Of a stretch of 64,000 bases of DNA, positions 44,580-64,000 are shown in pieces. How positions within the stretch are numbered: the first letter of the stretch is position 1; the number at the start of each line of letters is the position of its first letter. This stretch comes from Mobula hypostoma. Lineage: Eukaryota. Location of the stretch: the NCBI RefSeq assembly GCF_963921235.1, contig NC_086108.1, positions 1,612,001 through 1,676,000 of the forward strand, given 5' to 3'. The notes beneath the pieces are model-generated. The model did no database searches and was not told where the DNA came from. It saw nothing but the letters and a program-made list of their open reading frames with translations. The position numbers and the translations under genes are program-made.

Positions 44580-44779
44580 NNNNNNNNNNNNNNNNNNNNN
44601 NNNNNNNNNNNNNNNNNNNNNNNNNNNNNNNNNNNNNNNNNNNNNNNNNNNNNNNNNNNNNNNNNNNNNNNNNNNNNNNNNNNNNNNNNNNNNNNNNNNN
44701 NNNNNNNNNNNNNNNNNNNNNNNNNNNNNNNNNNNNNNNNNNNNNNNNNNNNNNNNNNNNNNNNNNNNNNNNNNNNNNN
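44580..44779. other. Assembly gap (200 N)
   Basis: Exactly 200 consecutive N. The round number is typical of a fixed-size scaffolding placeholder, so the true distance is unknown. Confidence 0.99.
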
Positions 44780-47700
44780 TGTTACTCTGACCATCGACAC
44801 TGTCTGACCTGCTGAGTTCCTCCAGCATTTTGTGTGTGTTACTCTGACCATCGACACTGTCTGACCTGCTGAGTTCCTCCAGCATTTTGTGTGTGTTACT
44901 CTGACCATCGACACTGTCTGACCTGCTGAGTTCCTCCAGCATTTTGTGTGTGTTACTCTGACCATCGACACTGTCTGACCTGCTGAGTTCCTCCAGCATT
45001 TTGTGTGTGTTACTCTGACCATCGACACTGTCTGACCTGCTGAGTTCCTCCAGCATTTTGTGTGTGTTACTCTGACCATCGACACTGTCTGACCTGCTGA
45101 GTTCCTCCAGCATTTTGTGTGTGTTACTCTGACCATCGACACTGTCTGACCTGCTGAGTTCCTCCAGCATTTTGTGTGTGTTACTCTGACCATCGACATT
45201 GTCTGACCCGCTAAGTTCCTCCAGCATTTTGTGTGTGTTACTCTGACCATCGACACGGTCTGACCCGCTGAGTTCCTCCAGCATTTTGTGTGTGTTACTC
45301 TGCAGCATCGACACTGTCTGACCCGCCGAGTTCCTCCAGCATTTTGTGTGTGTTACTCTGACCATCGACACTGTCTGATCCGCCGAGTTCCTCCAGCATT
45401 TTGTGTGTTACTCTGACCATCGACACTGTCTGATCTGCCGAGTTCCTCCAGCATTTTGTGTGTGTTACTCTGACCATCGACACTGTCTGACCTGCTGAGT
45501 TCCTCCAGCATTTTGTGTGTGTTACTCTGACCATCGACACTCTCTGACCTGCTGAGTTCCTCCAGCATTTTGTGTGTGTTACTCTGACCATCGACACTGT
45601 CTGACCTGCTGAGTTCCTCCAGCATTTTGTGTGTGTTACTCTGACCATCGACACTGTCTGACCTGCTGAGTTCCTCCAGCATTTTGTGTGTGTTACTCTG
45701 ACCATCGACACTGTCTGACCTGCTGAGTTCCTCCAGCATTTTGTGTGTGTTACTCTGACCATCGACACTGTCTGATCGGCTGAGTTCCTCCAGCATTTTG
45801 TGTGTGTTACTCTGACCATCGACACGGTCTGACCAGCTGAGGTCCTCCAGCATTTTGTGTGTGTTACTCTGTCCATAGACACTGTCCGACCTGCTGAGTT
45901 CCTCCAGCATTTTGTGTGTGTTACTCTGACCATCGACACTGTCTGACCTGCTGAGTTCCTCCAGCATTTTGTGTGTGTTACTCTGACCATCGACATTGTC
46001 TGACCCGCTAAGTTCCTCCAGCATTTTGTGTGTGTTACTCTGACCATCGACACTGTCTGACCTGCTGAGTTCCTCCAGCATTTTGTGTGTGTTACTCTGT
46101 CCATAGACACTGTCTGACCAGCAGAGGTCCTCCAGCATTTTGTGTGTGTTACTCTGACCATCGACATTGTCTGACCCGCTAAGTTCCTCCAGCATTTTGT
46201 GTGTGTTACTCTGACCATCGACACTGTCTGACCTGCTGAGTTCCTCCAGCATTTTGTGTGTGTTACTCTGACCATCGACACTGTCTGACCTGCTGAGTTC
46301 CTCCAGCATTTTGTGTGTGTTACTCTGACCATAGACACTGTCTGACCTGCTGAGTTCCTCCAGCATTTTGTGTGTGTTACTCTGACCATCGACACTGTCT
46401 GACCTGCTGAGTTCCTCCAGCATTTTGTGTGTGTTACTCTGACCATCGACATTGTCTGACCCGCTAAGTTCCTCCAGCATTTTGTGTGTGTTACTCTGAC
46501 CATCGACACTGTCTGACCTGCTGAGTTCCTCCAGCATTTTGTGTGTGTTACTCTGACCATCGACACTGTCTGACCCGCTGAGTTCCTCCAGCATTTTGTG
46601 TGTGTTACTCTGACCATCGACACGGTCTGACCCGCTGAGTTCCTCCAGCATTTTGTGTGTGTTACTCTGACCATCGACACTGTCTGACCGGCCGAGTTCC
46701 TCCAGCATTTTGTGTGTGTTACTCTGACCATCGACACGGTCTGACCCGCTGAGTTCCTCCAGCATTTTGTGTGTGTTACTCTGCGCATCGACACTGTCTG
46801 ACCCGCCGAGTTCCTCCAGCATTTTGTGTGTGTTACTCTGACCATCGACACTGTCTGATCCGCCGAGTTCCTCCAGCATTTTGTGTGTTACTCTCACCAT
46901 CGACACTGTCTGATCTGCCGAGTTCCTCCAGCATTTTGTGTGTGTTACTCTGACCATCGACACTGTCTGACCTGCTGAGTTCCTCCAGCATTTTGTGTGT
47001 GTTACTCTGACCATCGACACTACCTGACCTGCTGAGTTCCTCCAGCATTTTGTGTGTGTTACTCTGACCATCGACACTGTCTGATCGGCTGAGTTCCTCC
47101 AGCATTTGTGTGTGTTACTCTGACCATCGACACTGTCTGACCCGCTGAGTTCCTCCAGCATTTTGTGTGTGTTACTCTGACCATCGACACTGTCTGACCT
47201 GCTGAGTTCCTCCAGCATTTTGTGTGTGTTACTCTGACCATCGACACTGTCTGACCTGCTGAGTTCCTCCAGCATTTTGTGTGTGTTACTCTGACCATCG
47301 ACACTGTCTGACCTGCTGAGTTCCTCCAGCATTTTGTGTGTGTTACTCTGACCATCGACACTGTCTGACCTGCTGAGTTCCTCCAGCATTTTGTGTGTGT
47401 TACTCTGACCATCGACACTGTCTGACCTGCTGAGTTCCTCCAGCATTTTGTGTGTGTTACTCTGACCATCGACACTGTCTGACCCGCTGAGTTCCTCCAG
47501 CATTTTGTGTGTGTTACTCTGACCATCGACACGGTCTGACCCGCTGAGTTCCTCCAGCATTTTGTGTGTGTTACTCTGACCATCGACACTGTCTGACCTG
47601 CAGAGTTCCTCCAGCATTTTGTGTGTGTTACTCTGACCATCGACACTGTCTGACCCGCCGAGTTCCTCCAGCATTTTGTGTGTGTTACTCTGACCATCGA

Positions 47701-50700
47701 CACTGTCTGACCTGCTGAGTTCCTCCAGCATTTTGTGTGTGTTACTCTGACCATCGACACTCTCTGACCTGCTGAGTTCCTCCAGCATTTTGTGTGTGTT
47801 ACTCTGACCATAGACACTGTCTGACCTGCTGAGTTCCTCCAGCATTTTGTGTGTGTTACTCTGACCATCGACACTGCCTGACCTGCTGAGTTCCTCCAGC
47901 ATTTTGTGTGTGTTACTCTGACCATCGACACTGTCTGACCTGCTGAGTTCCTCCAGCATTTTGTGTGTGTTACTCTGACCATCGACACTGTCTGACCTGC
48001 TGAGTTCCTCCAGCATTTTGTGTGTGTTACTCTGACCATCGACATTGTCTGACCCGCTAAGTTCCTCCAGCATTTTGTGTGTGTTACTCTGACCATCGAC
48101 ACGGTCTGACCCGCTGAGTTCCTCCAGCATTTTGTGTGTGTTACTCTGCGCATCGACACTGTCTGACCCGCCGAGTTCCTCCAGCATTTTGTGTGTGTTA
48201 CTCTGACCATCGACACTGTCTGACCTGCTGAGTTCCTCCAGCATTTTGTGTGTGTTACTCTGACCATCGACACTGTCTGACCAGCTGAGTTCCTCCAGCA
48301 TTTTGTGTGTGTTACTCTGACCATCGACACTGTCTGACCCGCTGAGTTCCTCCAGCATTTTGTGTGTGTTACTCTGACCATCGACACTGTCTGACCTGCT
48401 GAGTTCCTCCAGCATTTTGTGTGTGTTACTCTGACCATCGACACTGTCTGACCTGCTGAGTTCCTCCAGCATTTTGTGTGTGTTACTCTGACCATCGACA
48501 CTGTCTGACCTGCTGAGTTCCTCCAGCATTTTGTGTGTGTTACTCTGACCATCGACACTGTCTGACCTGCTGAGTTCCTCCAGCATTTTGTGTGTGTTAC
48601 TCTGACCATCGACACTGTCTGACCCGCTGAGTTCCTCCAGCATTTTGTGTGTGTTACTCTGACCATCGACACTGTCTGACCTGCTGAGTTCCTCCAGCAT
48701 TTTGTGTGTGTTACTCTGACCATCGACATTGTCTGACCCGCTAAGTTCCTCCAGCATTTTGTGTGTGTTACTCTGACCATCGACACGGTCTGACCCGCTG
48801 AGTTCCTCCAGCATTTTGTGTGTGTTACTCTGCACATCGACACTGTCTGACCCGCCGAGTTCCTCCAGCATTTTGTGTGTGTTACTCTGACCATCGACAC
48901 TGTCTGACCGGCCGAGTTCCTCCAGCATTTTGTGTGTGTTACTCTGACCATCGACACGGTCTGACCCGCTGAGTTCCTCCAGCATTTTGTGTGTGTTACT
49001 CTGCGCATCGACACTGTCTGACCCGCCGAGTTCCTCCAGCATTTTGTGTGTGTTACTCTGACCATCGACACTGTCTGATCCGCCGAGTTCCTCCAGCATT
49101 TTGTGTGTTACTCTCACCATCGACACTGTTTGATCTGCCGAGTTCCTCCAGCATTTTGTGTGTGTTACTCTGACCATCGACACTGTCTGACCTGCTGAGT
49201 TCCTCCAGCATTTTGTGTGTATTACTCTGACCATCGACACTATCTGACCTGCTGAGTTCCTACAGCATTTTGTGTGTGTTACTCTGACCATCGACACTGT
49301 CTGATCGGCTGAGTTCCTCCAGCATTTTGTGTGTGTTACTCTGACCATCGACACTGTCTGACCCGCTGAGTTCCTCCAGCATTTTGTGTGTGTTACTCTG
49401 ACCATCGACACTGTCTGACCTGCTGAGTTCCTCCAGCATTTTGTGTGTGTTACTCTGACCATCGACACTGTCTGACCTGCTGAGTTCCTCCAGCATTTTG
49501 TGTGTGTTACTCTGACCATCGACACTGTCTAACCTGCTGAGTTCCTCCAGCATTTTGTGTGTGTTACTCTGACCATCGACACTGTCTGACCTGCTGAGTT
49601 CCTCCAGCATTTTGTGTGTGTTACTCTGACCATCGACACTGTCTGACCTGCTGAGTTCCTCCAGCATTTTGTGTGTGTTACTCTGACCATCGACATTGTC
49701 TGACCCGCTAAGTTCCTCCAGCATTTTGTGTGTGTTACTCTGACCATCGACACGGTCTGACCCGCTGAGTTCCTCCAGCATTTTGTGTGTGTTACTCTGC
49801 GCATCGACACTGTCTGACCCGCCGAGTTCCTCCAGCATTTTGTGTGTGTTACTCTGACCATCGACACTGTCTGACCGGCCTGTGAGTTCCTCCAGCATTT
49901 TGTGTGTGTTACTCTGACCATCGACACTGTCTGACCTGCTGAGTTCCTCCAGCATTTTGTGTGTGTTACTCTGACCATCGACACTGTCTGACCTGCTGAG
50001 TTCCTCCAGCATTTTGTGTGTGTTACTCTGACCATCGACACTGTCTGACCTGCTGAGTTCCTCCAGCATTTTGTGTGTGTTACTCTGACCATCGACACTG
50101 CCTGACCTGCTGAGTTCCTCCAGCATTTTGTGTGTGTTACTCTGACCATCGACACTGTCTGACCTGCTGAGTTCCTCCAGCATTTTGTGTGTGTTACTCT
50201 GACCATCGACACTGTCTGACCTGCTGAGTTCCTCCAGCATTTTGTGTGTGTTACTCTGACCATCGACATTGTCTGACCCGCTAAGTTCCTCCAGCATTTT
50301 GTGTGTGTTACCCTGACCATCGACACGGTCTGACCCGCTGAGTTCCTCCAGCATTTTGTGTGTGTTACTCTGCGCATCGACACTGTCGGACCCGCCGAGT
50401 TCCTCCAGCATTTTGTGTGTGTTACTCTGACCATCGACACTGTCTGACCTGCTGAGTTCCTCCAGCATTTTGTGTGTGTTACTCTGACCATAGACACTGT
50501 CTGACCAGCTGAGGTCCTCCAGCATTTTGTGTGTGTTACTCTGACCATCGACATTGTCTGACCCGCTAAGTTCCTCCAGCATTTTGTGTGTGTTACTCTG
50601 ACCATCGACACTGTCTGACCTGCTGAGTTCCTCCAGCATTTTGTGTGTGTTACTCTGACCATCGACACTGTCCGACCTGCTGAGTTCCTCCAGCATTTTG

Positions 50701-53700
50701 TGTGTATTACTCTGACCATAGACACTGTCCGACCTGCTGAGTTCCTCCAGCATTTTGTGTGTGTTACTCTGACCATCGACATTGTCTGACCGGCTGAGTT
50801 CCTCCAGCATTTTGTGTGTGTTACTCTGACCATCGACATTGTCTGACCCGCTAAGTTCCTCCAGCATTTTGTGTGTGTTACTCTGACCATCGACACTGTC
50901 TGACCTGCTGAGTTCCTCCAGCATTTTGTGTGTGTTACTCTGACCATCGACATTGTCTGACCCGCTAAGTTCCTCCAGCATTTTGTGTGTGTTACTCTGA
51001 CCATCGACACGGTCTGACCCGCTGAGTTCCTCCAGCATTTTGTGTGTGTTACTCTGCGCATCGACACTGTCTGACCCGCCGAGTTCCTCCAGCATTTTGT
51101 GTGTGTTACTCTGACCATCGACACTGTCTGACCGGCCGAGTTCCTCCAGCATTTTGTGTGTGTTACTCTGACCATCGACACGGTCTGACCCGCTGAGTTC
51201 CTCCAGCATTTTGTGTGTGTTACTCTGCGCATCGACACTGTCTGACCCGCCGAGTTCCTCCAGCATTTTGTGTGTGTTACTCTGACCATCGACACTGTCT
51301 GATCCGCCGAGTTCCTCCAGCATTTTGTGTGTTACTCTCACCATCGACACTGTTTGATCTGCCGAGTTCCTCCAGCATTTTGTGTGTGTTACTCTGACCA
51401 TCGACACTGTCTGACCTGCTGAGTTCCTCCAGCATTTTGTGTGTGTTACTCTGACCATCGACACTATCTGACCTGCTGAGTTCCTACAGCATTTTGTGTG
51501 TGTTACTCTGACCATCGACACTGTCTGATCGGCTGAGTTCCTCCGGCATTTCGTGTGTGTTACTCTGACCATCGACACTGTCTGACCCGCTGAGTTCCTC
51601 CAGCATTTTGTGTGTGTTACTCTGACCATCGACACTATCTGACCTGCTGAGTTCCTCCAGCATTTTGTGTGTGTTACTCTGACCATCGACACTGTCTGAC
51701 CTGCTGAGTTCCTCCAGCATTTTGTGTGTGTTACTCTGACCATCGACACTGTCTAACCTGCTGAGTTCCTCCAGCATTTTGTGTGTGTTACTCTGACCAT
51801 CGACACTGTCTGACCTGCTGAGTTCCTCCAGCATTTTGTGTGTGTTACTCTGACCATCGACACTGTCTGACCTGCTGAGTTCCTCCAGCATTTTGTGTGT
51901 GTTACTCTGACCATCGACATTGTCTGACCCGCTAAGTTCCTCCAGCATTTTGTGTGTGTTACTCTGACCATCGACACGGTCTGACCCGCTGAGTTCCTCC
52001 AGCATTTTGTGTGTGTTACTCTGCGCATCGACACTGTCTGACCCGCCGAGTTCCTCCAGCATTTTGTGTGTGTTACTCTGACCATCGACACTGTCTGACC
52101 GGCCGAGTTCCTCCAGCATTTTGTGTGTGTTACTCTGACCATCGACACTGTCTGACCTGCTGAGTTCCTCCAGCATTTTGTGTGTGTTACTCTGACCATC
52201 GACACTGTCTGACCTGCTGAGTTCCTCCAGCATTTTGTGTGTGTTACTCTGACCATAGACACTGTCTGACCTGCTGAGTTCCTCCAGCATTTTGTGTGTG
52301 TTACTCTGACCATCGACACTGCCTGACCTGCTGAGTTCCTCCAGCATTTTGTGTGTGTTACTCTGACCATCGACACTGTCTGACCTGCTGAGTTCCTCCA
52401 GCATTTTGTGTGTGTTACTCTGACCATCGACACTGTCTGACCTGCTGAGTTCCTCCAGCATTTTGTGTGTGTTACTCTGACCATCGACATTGTCTGACCC
52501 GCTAAGTTCCTCCAGCATTTTGTGTGTGTTACCCTGACCATCGACACGGTCTGACCCGCTGAGTTCCTCCAGCATTTTGTGTGTGTTACTCTGCGCATCG
52601 ACACTGTCTGACCCGCCGAGTTCCTCCAGCATTTTGTGTGTGTTACTCTGACCATCGACACTGTCTGATCCGCCGAGTTCCTCCAGCATTTTGTGTGTGT
52701 TACTCTGACCATCGACACTGTCTGATCTGCCGAGTTCCTCCAGCATTTTGTGTGTTACTCTGACCATCGACACTCTCTGACCTGCTGAGTTCCTCCAGCA
52801 TTTTGTGTGTGTTACTCTGACCATCGACACTCTCAGACCTGCTGTGTTCCTGCAGCATTTTGTGTGTGTTACTCTGACCATCGACACTGTCTGACCTGCC
52901 GAGTTCCTCCAGCATTTTGTGTGTGTTACTCTGACCATCGACACTGTCTGACCTGCCGAGTTCCTCCAGCATTTTGTGTGTGTTACTCTGACCATCGACA
53001 TTGTCTGACCCGCTAAGTTCCTCCAGCATTTTGTGTGTGTTACTCTGACCATCGACACGGTCTGACCCGCTGAGTTCCTCCAGCATTTTGTGTGTGTTAC
53101 TCTGCGCATCGACACTGTCTGACCCGCCGAGTTCCTCCATCATTTTGTGTGTGTTACTCTGACCATCGACACTGTCTGACCGGCTGAGTTCCTCCAGCAT
53201 TTTGTGTGTGTTACTCTGACCATCGACACTGTCTGACCTGCTGAGTTCCTCCAGCATTTTGTGTGTGTTACTCTGACCATCGACACTGTCTGACCTGCTG
53301 AGTTCCTCCAGCATTTTGTGTGTGTTACTCTGACCATAGACACTGTCTGACCTGCTGAGTTCCTCCAGCATTTTGTGTGTGTTACTCTGACCATCGACAC
53401 TGTCTGACCTGCTGAGTTCCTCCAGCATTTTGTGTGTGTTACTCTGACCATCGACACTGTCTGACCTGCTGAGTTCCTCCAGCATTTTGTGTGTGTTACT
53501 CTGACCATCGACACTGTCTGACCTGCTGAGTTCCTCCAGCATTTTGTGTGTGTTACTCTGACCATCGACATTGTCTGACCCGCTAAGTTCCTCCAGCATT
53601 TTGTGTGTGTTACTCTGACCATCGACACGGTCTGACCCGCTGAGTTCCTCCAGCATTTTGTGTGTGTTACTCTGCGCATCGACACTGTCTGACCAGCCGA

Positions 53701-56700
53701 GTTCCTCCAGCATTTTGTGTGTGTTACTCTGACCATCGACACTGTCTGATCCGCCGAGTTCCTCCAGCATTTTGTGTGTGTTACTCTGACCATCGACACT
53801 GTCTGATCTGCCGAGTTCCTCCAGCATTTTGTGTGTGTTACTCTGACCATCGACACTCTCTGACCTGCTGAGTTCCTCCAGCATTTTGTGTGTGTTACTC
53901 TGACCATCGACACTCTCAGACCTGCTGAGTTCCTCCAGCATTTTGTGTGTGTTACTCTGACCATCGACACTGTCTGACCTGCCGAGTTCCTCCAGCATTT
54001 TGTGTGTGTTACTCTGACCATCGACACTGTCTGACCTGCCGAGTTCCTCCAGCATTTTGTGTGTGTTACTCTGACCATCGACACTGTCTGACCCGCTGAG
54101 TTCCTCCAGCATTTTGTGTGTGTTACTCTGCCCATCGACACTGTCTGACCCGCTGAGTTCCTCCAGCATTTTGTGTGTGTTACTCTGACCATCGACACTG
54201 TCTGACCCGCCGAGTTCCTCCAGCATTTTGTGTGTGTTACTCTGACCATCGACACTGTCTGATCTGCCGAGTTCGTCCAGCATTTTGTGTGTGTTACTCT
54301 GCACATCGACACTGTCTGACCCGCCGAGTTCCTCCAGCATTTTGTGTGTGTTACTGTGTCCATCGACATTGTCTGACCCGCTGAGTTCCTCCAGCATTTT
54401 GTGTGTGTTACTCTGACCATCGACACTGTCTGACCCGCTGAGTTCCTCCAGCATTTCTGTGTGTGTTACTCTGGCCATCGACACTGTCTGACCTGCTGAG
54501 TTCCTCCAGCATTTTGTGTGTGTTACTCTGACCATAGACACTGTCTGACCTGCTGAGTTCCTCCAGCATTTTGTGTGTGTTACTCTGACCATAGACACTG
54601 TCTGACCTGCTGAGTTCCTCCAGCATTTTGTGTGTGTTACTCTGTCCATAGACTCTGTCTGACCTGCTGAGTTCCTCCAGCATTTTGTGTGTGTTACTCT
54701 GACCATCGACACTGTCTGACCTGCTGAGTTCCTCCAGCATTTTGTGTGTGTTACTCTGACCATAGACACTGTCCGACCTGCTGAGTTCCTCCAGCATTTT
54801 GTGTGTGTTACTCTGGTCATCGACACTGTCCGACCTGCTGAGTTCCTCCAGCATTTTGCGTGTGTTACTCTGACCATCGACAATATCTGACCTGCTGAGT
54901 TCCTCCAGCATTTTGCGTGTGTTATCTGACCATCGACACTGTCTGACCTGCTGAGTTCCTCCAGCATTTTGTGTGTGTTACTCTGACCATCGACACTGTC
55001 TGACCTGCTGAGTTCCTCCAGCATTTTGTGTGTGTTACTCTGACCATCGACACTGTCTGACCTGCTGAGTTCCTCCAGCATTTTGTGTGTGTTACTCTGA
55101 CCATCGACACTGTCTGACCTGCTGAGTTCCTCCAGCATTTTGTGTGTGTTACTCTGACCATCGACATTGTCTGACCCGCTAAGTTCCTCCAGCATTTTGT
55201 GTGTGTTACTCTGACCATCGACACGGTCTGACCCGCTGAGTTCCTCCAGCATTTTGTGTGTGTTACTCTGCACATCGACACTGTCTGATCCGCCGAGTTC
55301 CTCCAGCATTTTGTGTGTGTTACTCTGACCATCGACACTGTTTGATCTGCCGAGTTCCTCCAGCATTTTGTGTGTGTTACTCTGACCATCGACACTGTCT
55401 GACCTGCTGAGTTCCTCCAGCATTTTGTGTGTGTTACTCTGACCATCGACACTGTCTGACCTGCCGAGTTCCTCCAGCATTTTGTGTGTGTTACTCTGAC
55501 CATCGACACTGTCTGACCTGCCAAGTTCCTCCAGCATTTTGTGTGTGTTACTCTGACCATCGACACTGTCTGACCCGCTGAGTTCCTCCAGCATTTTGTG
55601 TGTGTTACTCTGACCATCGACACTGTCTGACCCGCCGAGTTCCTCCAGCATTTTGTGTGTGTTACTCTGACCATCGACACTGTCTGACCTGCCGAGTTCC
55701 TCCAGCATTTTGTGTGTGTTACTCTGACCATCGACACTGTCTGACCGGCTGAGTTCCTCCAGCATTTTGTGTGTGTTACTCTGACCATCGACACTATCTG
55801 ACCTGCTGAGTTCCTCCAGCATTTTGTGTGTGTTACTCTGACCATAGACACTGTCTGACCTGCTGAGTTCCTCCAGCATTTTGTGTGTGTTACTCTGGCC
55901 ATCGACACTGTCTGACCTGCTGAGTTCCTCCAGCATTTTGTGTGTGTTACTCTGACCATCGACACTATCTGACCTGCTGAGTTCCTCCAGCATTTTGTGT
56001 GTATTACTCTGACCATCGACACTGTCTGACCTGCTGAGTTCCTCCAGCATTTTGTGTGTGTTACTCTGACCATCGACACTGTCTGACCTGCTGAGTTCCT
56101 CCAGCATTTTGTGTGTGTTACTCTGACCATCGACACTGTCTGACCTGCTGAGTTCCTCCAGCATTTTGTGTGTGTTACTCTGACCATTGACACTGTCTGA
56201 CCTGCTGAGTTCCTCCAGCATTTTGTGTGTGTTACTCTGACCATCGACACTGTCTGACCTGCTGAGTTCCTCCAGCATTTTGTGTGTGTTACTCTGACCA
56301 TTGACACTGTCTGACCTGCTGAGTTCCTCCAGCATTTTGTGTGTGTTACTCTGACCATCGACACTGTCTGACCTGCTGAGTTCCTCCAGCATTTTGTGTG
56401 TGTTACTCTGACCATCGACATTGTCTGACCCGCTAAGTTCCTCCAGCATTTTGTGTGTGTTACTCTGACCATCGACACGGTCTGACCCGCTGAGTTCCTC
56501 CAGCATTTTGTGTGTGTTACTCTGCGCATCGACACTGTCTGACCCGCCGAGTTCCTCCAGCATTTTGTGTGTGTTACTCTGACCATCGACACTGTCTGAC
56601 CGGCTGAGTTCCTCCAGCATTTTGTGTGTGTTACTCTGACCATCGACACTGTCTGACCTGCTGAGTTCCTCCAGCATTTTGTGTGTGTTACTCTGACCAT

Positions 56701-59700
56701 CGACACTGTCTGACCTGCTGAGTTCCTCCAGCATTTTGTGTGTGTTACTCTGACCATAGACACTGTCTGACCTGCTGAGTTCCTCCAGCATTTTGTGTGT
56801 GTTACTCTGACCATCGACACTGCCTGACCTGCTGAGTTCCTCCAGCATTTTGTGTGTGTTACTCTGACCATCGACACTGTCTGACCTGCTGAGTTCCTCC
56901 AGCATTTTGAGTGTGTTACTCTGACCATCGACACTGTCTGACCTGCTGAGTTCCTCCAGCATTTTGTGTGTGTTACTCTGACCATCGACATTGTCTGACC
57001 CGCTAAGTTCCTCCAGCATTTTGTGTGTGTTACTCTGACCATCGACACGGTCTGACCCGCTGAGTTCCTCCAGCATTTTGTGTGTGTTACTCTGCGCATC
57101 GACACTGTCTGACCAGCCGAGTTCCTCCAGCATTTTGTGTGTGTTACTCTGACCATCGACACTGTCTGATCCGCCGAGTTCCTCCAGCATTTTGTGTGTT
57201 ACTCTGACCATCGACACTGTCTGATCTGCCGAGTTCCTCCAGCATTTTGTGTGTTACTCTGACCATCGACACTCTCTGACCTGCTGAGTTCCTCCAGCAT
57301 TTTGTGTGTGTTACTCTGACCATCGACACTCTCAGACCTGCTGTGTTCCTGCAGCATTTTATGTGTGTTACTCTGACCATCGACACTGTCTGACCTGCCG
57401 AGTTCCTCCAGCATTTTGTGTGTGTTACTCTGACCATCGACACTGTCTGACCTGCCGAGTTCCTCCAGCATTTTGTGTGTGTTACTCTGACCATCGACAC
57501 TGTCTGACCCGCTGAGTTCCTCCAGCATTTTGTGTGTGTTACTCTGCCCATCGACACTGTCTGACCCGCTGAGTTCCTCCAGCATTTTGTGTGTGTTACT
57601 CTGACCATCGACACTGTCTGACCCGCCGAGTTCCTCCAGCATTTTGTGTGTGTTACTCTGACCATCGACACTGTCTGATCTGCCGAGTTCGTCCAGCATT
57701 TTGTGTTTGTTTCTCTGACCATCGACACTGTCTGACCGGCTGAGTTCCTCCAGCATTTTGTGTGTGTTACTGTGTCCATCGACATTGTCTGACCCGCTGA
57801 GTTCCTCCCGCATTTTGTGTGTGTTACTCTGACCATCGACACTGTCTGACCCGCTGAGTTCCTCCAGCATTCTGTGTGTGTTACTCTGGCCATCGACACT
57901 GTCTGACCTGCTGAGTTCCTCCAGCATTTTGTGTGTGTTACTCTGACCATAGACACTGTCTGACCCACTGAGTTCCTCCAGCATTTTGTGTGTGTTACTC
58001 TGTCCATAGACACTGTCTGACCTGCTGAGTTCCTCCAGCATTTTGTGTGTGTTACTCTGTCCATAGACTCTGTCTGACCTGCTGAGTTCCTCCAGCATTT
58101 TGTGTGTGTTACTCTGACCATCGACACTGTCTGACCTGCTGAGTTCCTCCAGCATTTTGTGTGTGTTACTCTGACCATAGACACTGTCCGACCTGCTGAG
58201 TTCCTCCAGCATTTTGTGTGTGTTACTCTGGTCATCGACACTGTCCGACCTGCTGAGTTCCTCCAGCATTTTGCGTGTGTTACTCTGACCATCGACAATA
58301 TCTGACCTGCTGAGTTCCTCCAGCATTTTGCGTGTGTTAATCTGACCATCGACACTGTCTGACCTGCTGAGTTCCTCCAGCATTTTGTGTGTGTTACTCT
58401 GACCATCGACACTGTCTGACCTGCTGAGTTCCTCCAGCATTTTGTGTGTGTTACTCTGACCATCGACACTGTCTGACCTGCTGAGTTCCTCCAGCATTTT
58501 GTGTGTGTTACTCTGACCATCGACACTGTCTGACCTGCTGAGTTCCTCCAGCATTTTGTGTGTGTTACTCTGACCATCGACATTGTCTGACCCGCTAAGT
58601 TCCTCCAGCATTTTGTGTGTGTTACTCTGACCATCGACACGGTCTGACCCGCTGAGTTCCTCCAGCATTTTGTGTGTGTTACTCTGCACATCGACACTGT
58701 CTGATCCGCCGAGTTCCTCCAGCATTTTGTGTGTTACTCTGACCATCGACACTGTTTGATCTGCCGAGTTCCTCCAGCATTTTGTGTGTTACTCTGACCA
58801 TCGACACTCTCAGACCTGCTGAGTTCCTGCAGCATTCTTTGTGTGTTACTCTGACCATCGACACTGTCTGACCTGCCGAGTTCCTCCAGCATTTTGTGTG
58901 TGTTACTCTGACCATCGACACTGTCTGACCTGCCAAGTTCCTCCAGCATTTTGTGTGTGTTACTCTGACCATCGACACTGTCTGACCCGCTGAGTTCCTC
59001 CAGCATTTTGTGTGTGTTACTCTGACCATCGACACTGTCTGACCCGCCGAGTTCCTCCAGCATTTTGTGTGTGTTACTCTGACCATCGACACTGTCTGAT
59101 CTGCCGAGTTCCTCCAGCATTTTGTGTGTATTTCTCTGACCATCGACACTGTCAGACCGGCTGAGTTCCTCCAGCATTTTGTGTGTGTTACTCTGTCCAT
59201 CGACACTATCTGACCTGCTGAGTTCCTCCAGCATTTTGTGTGTGTTACTCTGACCATAGACACTGTCTGACCTGCTGAGTTCCTCCAGCATTTTGTGTGT
59301 GTTACTCTGGCCATCGACACTGTCTGACCTGCTGAGTTCCTCCAGCATTTTGTGTGTGTTACTCTGACCATCGACACTATCTGACCTGCTGAGTTCCTCC
59401 AGCATTTTGTGTGTATTACTCTGACCATCGACACTGTCTGACCTGCTGAGTTCCTCCAGCATTTTGTGTGTGTTACTCTGACCATCGACACTGTCTGACC
59501 TGCTGAGTTCCTCCAGCATTTTGTGTGTGTTACTCTGACCATCGACACTGTCTGACCTGCTGAGTTCCTCCAGCATTTTGTGTGTGTTACTCTGACCATT
59601 GACACTGTCTGACCTGCTGAGTTCCTCCAGCATTTTGTGTGTGTTACTCTGACCATCGACACTGTCTGACCTGCTGAGTTCCTCCAGCATTTTGTGTGTG

Positions 59701-61468
59701 TTACTCTGACCATTGACACTGTCTGACCTGCTGAGTTCCTCCAGCATTTTGTGTGTGTTACTCTGACCATCGACACTGTCTGACCTGCTGAGTTCCTCCA
59801 GCATTTTGTGTGTGTTACTCTGACCATCGACACTGTCTGACCTGCTGAGTTCCTCCAGCATTTTGTGTGTGTTACTCTGACCATCGACACTATCTGACCT
59901 GCTGAGTTCCTCCAGCATTTTGTGTGTGTTAATCTGACCATCGACACTGTCTGACCGGCTGAGTTCCTCCAGCATTTTGTGTGTGTTACTCTGACCATCG
60001 ACACTGTCTGACCCGTTGAGTTTCTCCAGCATTTTGTGTGTGTTACTCTGACCATCGACATTGTCTGACCCGCTGAGTTCCTCCAGCATTCTGTGTGTGT
60101 TACTCTGACCATCGACACTGTCTGACCTGCTGAGTTCCTCCAGCATTTTGTGTGTTTTACTCTGACCATAGACACTGTCTGACCTGCTGAGTTCCTCCAG
60201 CATTTTGTGTGTGTTACTCTGACCATCGACACTGTCTGACCTGCTGAGTTCCTCCAGCATTTTGTGTGTGTTACTCTGACCATAGACCCTGTCTGACCTG
60301 CTGAGTTCCTCCAGCATTTTGTATGTGTTACTCTGACCATAGTCACTGTCCGACCTGCTGAGTTCCTCCAGCATTTTGTGTGTGTTACTCTGACCATCGA
60401 CACTGTCTGACCTGCTGAGTTCCTCCAGCACTTTGCGTGTGTTACTCTGGCCATCGACACTGTCTGACCGGCTGAGTTCCTCCAGCATTTTGTGTGTGTT
60501 ACTCTGACCATCGACACTATCTGACCTGCTGAGTTCCTCCAGCATTTTGTGTGTGTTACTCTGACCATCGACACTGTCTGACCTGCTGAGTTCCTCCAGC
60601 ATTTTGTGTTTGTTACTCTGACCATCGACATTGTCTGACCTGCTGTGTTCCTCCAGCATTCTGTGTGTGTTACTCTGACCATGGGCACTGTCTGACCCGC
60701 TGAGTTCCTCCAGCATTTTGTGTGTGTTACTCTGTCCATCGACACTGTCTGACCTGCTGAGTTCCTCCAGCATTTTGTGTGTGTTACTCTGACCATCGAC
60801 ACTATCTGACCTGCTGAGTTCCTCCAGCATTTTGTGTTTGTTACTCTGACCATCGACATTGTCTGACCTGCTGTGTTCCTCCAGCATTCTGTGTGTATTA
60901 CTCTGACCATCGACACTGTCTGACCTGCTGAGTTCCTCCAGTATTTTGTGTGTGTTACTCTGACCATCGACACTGTCTGACCTGCTGAGTTCCTCCAGCA
61001 TTTTGTGTGTGTTACTCTGACCATCGACACTGTCTGTCGTGCTGAGTTTCTCCAGCGTTTTGTGTGTGTTACTCTGACCATCGACACTGTCTGACCTGCT
61101 GAGTTCCTCCAGCATTTTGTGTGTGTTACTCTGACCATCGACACTGTCTGACCTGCTGAGTTCCTCCAGCATTTTGTGTGTGTTACTCTGACCATCGACA
61201 CTGTCTGACCTGCTGAGTTCCTCCAGCATTTCGTGTGTGTTACTCTGACCATCGACACTGTCTGACCTGCTGAGTTCCTCCAGCATTTTGTGTGTGTTAC
61301 TCTGACCATCGACACTGTCTGACCTGCTGAGTTCCTTCAGCATTTTGTGTGTGTTACTCTGACCATCGACACTGTCTGACCTGCTGAGTTCCTCCAGCAT
61401 TTTGTGTGTGTTACTCTGACCATCGATCTGTCTGACCTGCTGAGTTCCTCCAGCATTTTGTGTGTGTT
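44780..61468. repeat. 57-bp tandem satellite array, about 290 units
   Basis: Consensus TGTTACTCTGACCATCGACACTGTCTGACCTGCTGAGTTCCTCCAGCATTTTGTGTG (57 nt) repeats head-to-tail. Some 55-bp units have lost one TG. The array ends sharply at ...CATTTTGTGTGTGTT (61468) and passes into unique sequence. Confidence 0.99.
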
Positions 61469-61594
61469 TACCAGTTTGTGTGATCTGCCATCTATGAAGT
61501 GCTTCCAGTTGTAACATGGGAAAGGAATGTCTGTTCAGCTCACACACCATGTGCTCTTGCTAATGACCAGACATGACCACTGATTTGAGGAGTG

Positions 61595-61620
61595 TGAGGG
61601 GAGAATGAGGGGAGAATGAG
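61595..61620. repeat. Short tandem duplication (TGAGGGGAGAA)x2.4
   Basis: TGAGGGGAGAA TGAGGGGAGAA TGAG read directly from the sequence. Confidence 0.9.
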
Positions 61621-61693
61621 AGCTGAGTCCCTCACAGTGGCTGGTGCTGAGGTGTCAGCCGTGCTCCGTCTAGAGGACTCCAAGATGACTCAC

Positions 61694-61785
61694 GGCTGGG
61701 CGCTGCAGCAGCTGTGGCTGACGTCTCCACCGTCAGCCTCGTCAGCCTTCTCTTCTTCCCCAGGGGAGCGTCACGCGCAGAGCAT
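61694..61785 (-). other. Candidate internal exon of an unidentified gene (92 bp)
   Basis: GC- and CpG-rich unique patch. The minus strand has a consensus donor GTGAGT (plus ACTCAC 61688-61693) and an acceptor ...CCTGTCAG (plus CTG 61786-61788). One frame is open: CSARDAPLGKKRRLTRLTVETSATAAAAPS. No homology recognised and the acceptor is weak. Confidence 0.25.
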
Positions 61786-61908
61786 CTGACAGGTTAATGG
61801 CCAAGGGACTGAAAATACAAATATCAGCTCATCAAGCAGAAAGTTCACTTGAACTGTTGACTTTTCTGAGTGCAAGTCATGTGTTATGTCAGATATTTAA
61901 TTTCACAC

Positions 61909-62331
61909 TCATCTGGTAGACGGTACAAGAGCCTCTGTACTCACACCATCAGGTTAAAGAACAGTCACTACCTCTCAGACATCTAAATGACAATAAAAGA
62001 GGACTGCATGTCCTCATAATCTAATCTAATCTAATCAGGCTCTTGAACAAAAGAGGACAACTACACTCACTTCTCCAACCATTGAGATGTTCCCACAACC
62101 AATGATCTCACTTTAAGGACTCTATCTCATTTTCTCGTTATTTAATGCTATTTATTTATATTTGCATTTTCACAGTTTTCTGTCTTCTGCATTCTGGTTG
62201 ATCTTTCATTGATCCTGTTATAGTTACTATTCTACAGATTTGCTCAGTATGCCCACAGGAAAACGAATCTCAGGGTTGTCTGTGGTGACGGGTATGTACC
62301 CTGATAATAACATTGACCTTGAACTTTGAAC
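61909..62331 (+). mobile_element. 5'-truncated Rex1/Babar-type LINE relic (ORF C-terminus, 3'UTR and TTGAAC-like tail), interrupted at 61984-62036
   Basis: 61909-61983 translates SSGRRYKSLCTHTIRLKNSHYLSDI and resumes at 62037 as RLLN. This matches the SGRRYRS...T.R..NS.YP..IRLLN C-terminal signature I recall for Rex1/Babar ORFs. An AT-rich UTR follows, ending AATAACATTGACCTTGAACTTTGAAC. Family assignment is from memory, not a search. Confidence 0.7.
61984..62036 (+). mobile_element. 53-bp extreme 3' tail of a non-LTR retrotransposon with a (TAATC)n tail
   Basis: Contains AATAAA (61992-61997), a perfect hairpin GAGGAC-TGCAT-GTCCTC (61999-62015) and (TAATC)4 (62017-62036). Removing it restores the host frame ...GAC ATC|AGG CTC TTG AAC. 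Confidence 0.7.
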
Positions 62332-62335
62332 AAGT

Positions 62336-62459
62336 ACCTTCTTATTCTGGCTTCTGCCCCCTTTCTTTCCAGTCTTGAAGAAGGGTTTCAGTCTAAAATG
62401 TCAACTATTTATTCCCCTCCATGGATGCTGCCTGACCTGCTAAGCTCTTCCAGTGCTTT
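62336..62459 (+). mobile_element. Fragment of a Penelope-like (or PLE-derived) dispersed repeat terminus with a decayed minimal hammerhead motif
   Basis: A pyrimidine-rich tract is followed by AGTC-TTGAAGA-AGGGTTTCAGTCT-AAAA-TGTC-AACT (62371-62406) and then CCATGGATGCTGCCTGACCTGCTAAGCTCTTCCAG. This resembles an abundant elasmobranch repeat I recall as AGTCCTGATGAAGGGTCTCGGCCCGAAACGTCGACT...CCATAGATGCTGCCTGACCTGCTGAGTTCCTCCAGCA (not database-verified here). Confidence 0.65.
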
Positions 62460-62516
62460 ACCAAATATGAGACCGATTGAGGATCAAGGATCACCATCTA
62501 CCGTGAATTTTACACT

Positions 62517-62565
62517 CTGTACTGTGCACATGTATACAGCTGGGATGCCTAAGGCTTTTCACAGT
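62517..62565. mobile_element. Possible degraded Tc1-type MITE remnant
   Basis: Ends ACTGTG (62521-62526) and CACAGT (62560-62565) are inverted. The internal GGATGCCTAAGGCTTTTCACAGT resembles Tc1-like TIR ends (GTGCCTAAGACTTTTGCACAGTACTG, recalled). Short and degenerate. Confidence 0.3.
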
Positions 62566-62644
62566 TTATGCATTGCACTGTACTGCTGCTGCAAAATAAA
62601 CTAATTTTGTGGCATACATGAGTGCTGATAAACCTGATTCTGAT
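62566..62644 (+). mobile_element. 3' tail fragment of another LINE family (AAACCTGATTCTGAT end)
   Basis: TTATGCATTGCACTGTACTGCTGCTGCAAAA...GATAAACCTGATTCTGAT has a degenerate polyA-like signal followed by a (CTGATT)n-type tail. It resembles fish and elasmobranch LINE 3' ends (recalled). Confidence 0.45.
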
Positions 62645-64000
62645 ATAAGACATAAGACTATAAGATATAGGAGTAGAAGTAGGCCATTCGGGTCATCGAG
62701 TCTGCTCTGCCATTCAATCACGGCCTGATCCAATTCTTCCAGTCATCCCCACTCCCCTGTCTTCTCCCCATACCCTTTGATGCCCTGGCTAATCAAGAAT
62801 CTATCTATCTCTGCCTTAAGTACACTCAATGACTCGGCCTCCACAGCCGCTCGTGGGAACAACTTCCACAGATTTACCACCCTCTGACTAAAGTAATTTC
62901 TCTGCATCTCTGCTCTAAATGGACGTCCTTCAATCCTGAAATCGTGCCTTCTTGTCCTAGACTTCCCTACCATGGGAAATAACTAATCTGTTCAGCCTTT
63001 TAACATTCGGTCTGTTTCGATGAGATCCCCCCTCATTCTCCTGAACTCCAGGGAATACAGCCCAAGAACTGCCAGACGTTCCTCATACGGTAACCCTCTC
63101 ATTCCTGGAATCATTCTTGTGAATCTTCTCTGAACCATCTCCAATGTCAGTATATCCTTTCTAAAATAAGGAGCCCAAAACTGCACACAATACTCCAATG
63201 TGGTCTCACGACTGTCTTATAGAACTTCAACGTCACATACCTGATCTTATATTCTATACCTCTAGAAATGAATGCCAACATTGCATTCGCCTTCTTCACC
63301 ACCGACTCATCCTGGAGGTTAACCTTTAGGGTATCCTGCACAGGAACTCCCAAGTTCCTTTGCATCTCTGTATTTTGAATTCTCTCCCCATCTAAATAAT
63401 AGTCTGCCCGTTTATTTCTTCCACCAAAGTGCATGACCATACACTTTCCAACATTGTATTTCATTTGCCACTTCTTTGCCTATTCCACTAAACTATCTAA
63501 GTCTCTCTGCAGGCTCTCTGTTTCCTCAACACTACCCGCTCCTCCACCTATCTTTGTATCATCGGCAAATTTAGCCACAAATCCATTAATCCCGAAGTCC
63601 AAATCATTGACCTACATCGTAAAAAGCAGCAGTCCCAACACCGACTCCTGTAGAACTCCACTGGTAACCGGCAGCCAGCCAGAATAGGATCCCTTTATTC
63701 CCAGTCTCTGTTTTCTGCTGATCAGCCAATGCTCCACCCATGCTAGTAACTTCCCTGTAATTCCATGGGCTCTTATCTTGCTAAGCAGCCTCATGTATGG
63801 CACCTTGTCAAAGGCCTTTTGAAAATCCAAGTACACCACATCTACTGGATCTCCTTTGTCTACCCTGCTTGTAATTTACTCAAAAAATTGCAGTAGGTTA
63901 ATCAGGCAGGATTTTCCTTTCAGGAAACCATGCTGGCTTTGGCCTATCTTGTCATGTGTCTCCAGGTACTCCGTAATCTCATCCCTAACAATTAATTCCA
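62645..64000 (-). mobile_element. CR1-clade LINE, 3' part (RT domain, C-terminus, 3'UTR, TCTTAT-type tail); continues beyond the window
   Basis: Minus-strand peptides YLDFQKAFDKVP, SGVLQESVLG (from GVPQGSVLGP), KFADDTK (FADD at 63569-63558), [32 protein letters not shown] and FSQRVVNLW are canonical CR1 ORF2 motifs. The stop is at 62743 and the tail repeats ATAAGAC/ATAAGACT/ATAAGAT lie at 62645-62667. Confidence 0.95.
62743..64000 (-). pseudogene. Inactivated CR1 ORF2 (reverse transcriptase) fragment
   Basis: Premature TAG at 63614-63612 and another near 63480, a frameshift near 63198, and a TGA with small deletions near 62992-62980. Confidence 0.9.

Follow-up and report, generated by a model that had tools for sequence, protein, structure and literature searches.

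How does a short satellite arise, and from what? The question is raised by a 57-bp tandem repeat in a 64,000-nt stretch of the Mobula hypostoma genome (contig NC_086108.1, positions 1,612,001 to 1,676,000), referred to here as the window and used for all coordinates below. The array spans 16.7 kb (44780-61468, plus strand), with 293.1 copies at period 57 and 95% matches. Unit-by-unit division of the interval yields 293 units, which is a lower bound because the left edge abuts an assembly gap of 200 N (44580-44779) that conceals the left array end; an earlier sequence-only reading had correctly put the amplification at about 290-fold. The same reading proposed that a dispersed family bearing a hammerhead gave rise to the satellite, through a ribozyme-free piece located 3′ of its cut site, and contigs from public sequencing runs support this. 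We found that the whole 57-bp unit is one unbroken stretch of an abundant dispersed family. It is quite probable, in our view, that the unit came from the stretch 3′ of the hammerhead of a likely Penelope-like family, and that the array likely grew from one copy by tandem duplication at the DNA level.

A trace of the parent family lies beside the array. A decayed dispersed copy (62336-62453, plus strand, 5′ limit approximate) contains a segment, 62419-62453, that aligns to the unit without gaps and on the same strand at 28 of 35 positions, six of the seven differences being transitions, exactly as first read. None of 1000 dinucleotide shuffles of the 2.5-kb flank, searched on both strands, reached its local score of 35 (shuffle mean 20.9, maximum 32). 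The matching segment opens 16 nt past the GTC triplet at 62400-62402, a spacing that hand mapping confirmed. This copy had been described as a relative 1 kb away from the satellite; it does belong to the same family, but it is neither a close relative nor the parent, as it agrees with the full rotated unit at only 32 of 57 positions and reads AAG where the family reads GAG (contig loose end at 62441). Very likely it is a dead sibling relic, and since the family is so abundant, a sibling less than 1 kb from the array needs no special explanation. Contigs cover the shared stretch to a summed depth ~10^5-fold higher than in the single-copy flank, a ratio that is not a copy number, and in run X1 the family depth drops from 389,374 to 204 past 62454.

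The family itself was read from contigs of four public runs, aligned to 61240-62560 at 80% likeness. Three are DNA runs from organisms A, B and C, and the fourth, X15, is a run of organism A that is only guessed to be RNA and was used for sequence alone. Organism A is the best-matching source and possibly the window's own sample, hence not independent. The contigs placed numbered 111,532 (A), 138,054 (B), 103,677 (C) and 13,091 (guessed RNA), other repeats at 61915-62330 included. Counts of contigs entering or leaving the unit are given among the loose ends listed (there were 3620 further rows), and those for runs X1 and X9 are to be taken as at least the number stated. Contigs enter the unit at 61258 (757, 882 and 786 in A, B and C) and at 61428 (1227, 1225 and 1135), and at both places the entry falls at unit position 20-21. 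Their loose 5′ letters spell hammerhead stem III/stem I, a pyrimidine spacer and then nine unit-like letters, six of which agree with unit positions 12-20. The proposed link to an upstream hammerhead thus recurs in other copies, carried by 757-1227 contigs per DNA run at each listed entry point. Contigs leave at unit position 4 (857, 798 and 734 in A, B and C at one exit; 972, 934 and 757 at the other) and at position 10 (715, 737 and 603; 826, 922 and 711), where they lead into a common tail of at least 30 nt. The unit had been taken for the last ~57 nt of the element; it is not, because 603-922 contigs per DNA run at each of these two exits continue for at least 30 nt.

When the unit is phased from position 12 and compared by eye with the majority family letters, its successive segments agree at 6/9, 13/14, 27/27 and 4/7 positions, or 50/57. 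Similarity between the family and the full 57-mer, on which the derivation had been staked beforehand, is therefore present, and with the shuffle test it shows the unit to be homologous, over its entire length, to an unbroken piece of a dispersed repeat. At 61318, which represents unit position 24, the family reads C in 85-91% of the depth in the three DNA runs. In terms of the family, the unit begins 16 nt after the cut site, passes through the TG tract and ends 7 nt into the further tail, and the sole new joint in the array lies between unit positions 11 and 12. The TGT microhomology suggested earlier as the slippage point does not fit, as the TG tract is internal to the family stretch and the new junction lies at positions 11/12.

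The first dimer would have been made in a single event of DNA repair or slippage. In the loose-end lines the hexamer TTTCCA is found twice, where the unit starts and 61 nt later, within 4 nt of both breakpoints, and would be a better seed candidate than TGT. A slip between its copies would additionally require the loss of 4 nt and a substitution; a blunt join, with one substitution but one event fewer overall, would be simpler. No 61-nt precursor unit survives in the array, and the 58- and 60-nt units examined have their insertions away from the junction. As an observation apart, the 7-mer TCTGACC occurs twice per unit (positions 7-13 and 24-30), and the changes of the unit from the family at positions 11 and 24 contribute to this doubling, which could be fortuitous or have been left by template switching.

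Growth beyond the dimer left a clear pattern. Pairs of identical variant units are found 60 units apart (30 pairs) and 39 units apart (25 pairs), where 1000 shuffles gave no more than 14 at any lag; at lags 79 and 19 the pair counts (13 and 9) are inside the shuffle range, and matching runs of 27 and 23 units are found. The array is thus built of nested duplicated blocks of about 19, 39, 60 and 79 units, which differ from each other by 0.6-1.3%, vs. 5.0% for random units (the mean pairwise difference in the array). From established satellite biology, unequal exchange and replication-based duplication would transmit multi-unit patterns of this kind. Repeated copying of a short RNA template would not, and the nested blocks therefore point to expansion at the DNA level and not to reverse-transcriptase (RT) jumping, so that the repeated template jumping once suggested as the route of expansion is not supported. 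Recent duplication of blocks of 19-79 units would have occurred by unequal exchange or replication-based copying, the pattern being visible in the array and the process presumed. The authors who described the SINE-derived satellites (sSats; SINE, short interspersed element) of squamates argue likewise for DNA-level growth (PMC10702118).

A first dimer or oligomer could nonetheless have arisen in retrotransposition, through RT template jumping or the copying of a small circular RNA, with only the later growth taking place in DNA. Penelope-like elements make head-to-tail arrangements, and circular templates have been proposed for them (PMC4209133); tandem non-LTR retrozymes derived from pseudo-long terminal repeats (pLTRs) form arrays of as many as 300 units, with consensus lengths of 51-972 bp (10.64898/2026.07.22.740005). 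The 3′ limit of the unit is 7 nt from a contig exit of low agreement (0.40-0.45 vs. 0.56-0.64 at position 10, DNA runs), which is likely a common copy end, and in 19 contigs, drawn from the three DNA runs, the TG tract is joined to a second copy on the same strand (joints to 62418/62424, among the rows listed). However, a unit that starts 16 nt past the cut site and lacks the ribozyme is not a monomer running from one cleavage site to the next; the limits at 62418/62424 sit just behind mismatches private to the local copy and account for 2 of the 15 joint rows listed; and the nested blocks need DNA-level events under this scenario as well. We rejected the 62418/62424 joints as proof of a common boundary, and a retrotranspositional start seems to us unlikely.

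The right end of the array bears on where the satellite was born. The last unit in family phase (61420-61468, plus strand) carries a family-like T at position 19, alone among the 293 units, and ends at the TG tract, where it is joined to unique DNA. One-off variants are present in 17 of the last 29 units vs. 39 of the 264 others (p = 6e-7), and these variant-rich units are the worn edge of an old array end. Organisms B and C also have the single-copy flank that follows (61469-61914), and in both it adjoins the last 24-28 nt of the unit. Single contigs cross this right junction in organism B (61441-61972) and organism C (61444-61965, with 33 differences in about 520 sites), and since the junction is common to B and C, family-like DNA was present at the locus before these lineages split.

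Several observations weigh against an origin in place from a single copy of a Penelope-like family. The contigs of B and C are too short to tell an array from a single copy. The last unit ends at the TG tract without the 7 tail letters present in every inner unit, and in-place origin from a tail-bearing copy must therefore assume that the tail was lost or decayed. The left end of the array is in the gap, so birth in place has to be inferred; the right end stops at the TG tract, with one family-like letter in the last unit, and the 5′ half of any founder copy would fall within 44580-44779. The agreement of 50/57 combines majority lines of different runs, and 134 further difference rows lie outside the comparison. 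Lastly, no RT or GIY-YIG gene was reached for the family, as the local copy is 5′-truncated and protein searches gave nothing relevant; their four matches were to unrelated repetitive proteins and were discarded.

Some of these points would suit a satellite born from the same family at another locus, a piece of which later moved here, for example by recombination with a resident copy ending at the TG tract. Such a transfer would account for the missing tail letters of the last unit, for a right junction that predates the split from organism C beside an array that is young inside, and for the contact of the array with another satellite across the gap. Yet the last unit has its family-like position 19 between satellite-type positions 16 and 24, which one crossover does not yield, and the worn right edge suits long residence. 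We consider transfer from elsewhere very unlikely, and amplification in place of a single family copy remains our preferred account.

Inside the array, letters of the family type are found at scattered positions: 16A in 22, 24C in 5 and 11G in 7 of the 293 units, with no unit carrying 5G or 20G and no full-length unit carrying 19T. Because these alleles never co-occur, a surviving ancestral unit was rejected. The C variant at position 24 (unit at 47854; 5/293) had been read as a better match to the dispersed copy. It exists and equals the family state, but the five 24C units are otherwise nearly unchanged, and three of them come immediately after a 16A unit, the arrangement expected if one event had been duplicated. 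The second variant held to improve the match, GCTAAG, is a coincidence: it is present in 21 of 293 units, the family reads GAG, and 19 of the 21 are on one derived haplotype with two further non-family changes.

The assignment of a hammerhead to the parent family rests on hand mapping combined with family contigs. The local relic, of the minimal type I (62370-62407, plus strand), is made up of stem I (62370-62374/62403-62407), core (62375-62381), an extra A (62382) and stem II (62383-62385/62392-62394), with the predicted cut after 62402. In place of an intact core (C3-G8 pair, G12) and a paired stem I, it carries U3, A12 and U15.2 and retains 2 of 5 stem I pairs. Since G12 is the general base of the hammerhead (PMC2553840) and the copy has A12, it is very likely dead. 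The changes C3G and G8C abolish cleavage in the experiments of Frangieh et al. (PMC11167929), in whose relevant passages C3U is not among the changes tested. No hammerhead fold was predicted for the local copy, and Rfam returned no hammerhead in the window at gathering score, nor in 61300-64000 at E≤10; three weak hits at the latter threshold, all under gathering score, were rejected. For the family, 54 contigs of the guessed-RNA run have loose letters before 62408 that agree with 62378-62407 at 19 of 30 positions by eye, 10 of the 11 differences being transitions. These letters include G12, the extra A after A9 and a stem II of GGG/CCC, and run X1 adds a GTC/GAC palindrome. The family end repeat thus displays U7-G8-A9, the extra A, the GGG/CCC stem II, GAAA and the GTC/GAC palindrome of a minimal type I hammerhead, the letters displayed covering the core outside positions 3-5. 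The array has none of this: no hammerhead core pattern was found in it on either strand of the window, no hammerhead recurs in its tandem units, and the predicted fold of an array dimer does not surpass those of shuffled sequences (z = 0.53).

The sequence-only reading had placed the unit in a hammerhead-bearing retroelement terminus and pointed to the minimal hammerheads of Penelope-like elements. A hammerhead-bearing family is borne out, and the Penelope identity, which comes from the motif and the copy pairs, is likely only. We regard the parent family as likely the end of a Penelope-like retroelement because of its minimal hammerhead, its copies paired on opposite strands (12 of the 15 joints listed, with 1244 further rows) and a run-on that resembles an optional tail. 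Minimal hammerheads are known from the pLTRs of metazoan Penelope-like elements (Cervera and De la Pena 2014; PMC4209133). The motifs shown there and the parent family share an extra base between 9 and 10.1, a G10.1-C11.1 pair and a loopless palindromic 15.2-16.2, and occur as dispersed single motifs and as opposite-strand pairs. Unlike the Schistosoma stem II of 7-8 pairs in that account, only 3 pairs are firm here, the local copy is decayed and the satellite lacks the motif (PMC4209133). Frangieh et al. (2024) reported that Penelope copies end at two points, with an optional 30-40 bp tail between them (PMC11167929). The mixed exit at the TG tract and the common run-on of at least 30 nt resemble that arrangement; by analogy, the run-on may be the Penelope optional tail.

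The closest precedents for such an origin are also satellites made from retroelements. In the sSats of squamates, an internal piece of an abundant retroelement was tandemised to up to 1000 units per locus; long loci are homogeneous, and duplication with unequal recombination is favoured by Vassetzky, Kosushkin and Ryskov (2023; PMC10702118). The 57-bp array is likewise an internal piece of a very abundant retroelement, tandemly amplified. It differs from what is described for sSats in its short unit of 57 nt and in its source, a hammerhead-bearing, likely Penelope-like end repeat where sSats have a tRNA-derived SINE; a longer terminal unit, such as sSats typically show, is not seen at the right end here, and the left end is in the gap. 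Animal non-LTR retrozymes, described as Penelope pLTR derivatives and reported also from a chondrichthyan (Li, Clavereau and Pollet 2026; 10.64898/2026.07.22.740005), share with it pLTR-related tandem repeats of units from 51 bp and up to 300 units. Every retrozyme unit, however, is said there to contain a hammerhead, and a rolling-circle route of movement is proposed. The 57-bp unit excludes the ribozyme entirely, and the satellite is not a retrozyme for that reason. Penelope-related satellites have been published, among them HviSat02-2707 of Harttia (PMC11955569; review, PMC12692304), which is far longer (2707 in its name) and whose unit limits are not mapped against ribozyme or tail in the passages describing it (PMC11955569, PMC12692304). 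More generally, the 57-bp array works like the TE-born satellites (TE, transposable element) reviewed in PMC9659126. The satellite array itself is new, while TE-born and Penelope-related satellites are already known. No publication on this satellite was found in open-licence text, a 17-nt motif of the unit had no match in the literature searched, and the supplements of PMC8557442 and PMC4209133 (less one file of the latter, which may hold a related motif) gave none either. Exact-pattern scans of viral contigs and of a first metagenome set also gave no match. Seed-level matches at 158 loci (39 from prokaryotic genomes, 119 from a second metagenome scan), which scored at most 49 against the unit dimer and 43 against the local copy, little more than the seed itself, were judged to be chance.

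It may be asked whether the array is instead a giant coding repeat on the minus strand, with 19 codons per unit. The consensus unit is stop-free in two of its three frames on the minus strand, and a 941-aa open frame of 19-aa unit translations runs over 58734-61559 there. The frame is broken, however, by units of 55, 56 and 58 nt (nine, one and one, respectively, in 291 intervals); no related protein was found in searches, which is weak evidence by the tools' own notes; and the unit is already explained as retroelement end DNA. A coding repeat is scarcely credible. With its 293 units and frame-breaking length variants, the locus is a long head-to-tail non-coding array, which would be unable to self-cleave and passive. 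Separately, the 941-aa frame at 58734-61559 is broken further in by 55-nt units, and gene callers may report a false repeat protein here.

The kind of event is one already described, and the value of this locus is as an example and a test case. A satellite has been traced base by base to a retroelement end, its limits mapped against ribozyme, TG tract and tail, and a pLTR-type satellite that needs no ribozyme offers a useful contrast to retrozyme tandems. Because three related organisms have the right junction in common, the satellite's birth could be dated from this locus. A bolder idea is that the sequence immediately 3′ of the hammerhead seeds tandem DNA repeatedly, through RT or the hexamer, as dimers lacking the ribozyme and bounded identically at many loci, one of which grew into this satellite, and that the array has a role in silencing; we think this quite unlikely. 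If true, the array, with 88% likeness to the end of a hugely amplified element, could give transcripts that are a source of small RNAs silencing the family.

The remainder of the window is repetitive in other ways. Positions 1-44579 hold a 42-bp satellite (1058 copies, 91% matches by repeat finding) that is CpG-rich (observed/expected 0.94). Its unit is unrelated to the 57-bp unit (best mutual score 17), and the two arrays meet solely via the 200 N. Beyond the 57-bp array are 2.5 kb of mixed flank. The single-copy part includes an 11-bp unit in 2.4 copies at 61595-61620, of which organism B is one copy short, and, on the minus strand at 61636-61785, an exon-like stretch of 150 nt flanked by AG and GTGAG with 49 open codons. 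Relatives of this stretch were sought and none was found; it has 14 listed differing sites in organism C and a 9-nt in-frame deletion in run X1, it is partly covered, though thinly, in the guessed-RNA run, and it is a candidate exon only. High-depth dispersed repeats, ending in a short TGAACTT repeat, occupy 61915-62335 between the flank and the hammerhead relic. From about 62740 to 64000, the minus strand contains decayed RT frames of a long interspersed nuclear element (LINE), with a match to PF00078 at 63612-63875 (E = 7.6e-5) that is under the Pfam cut-off.

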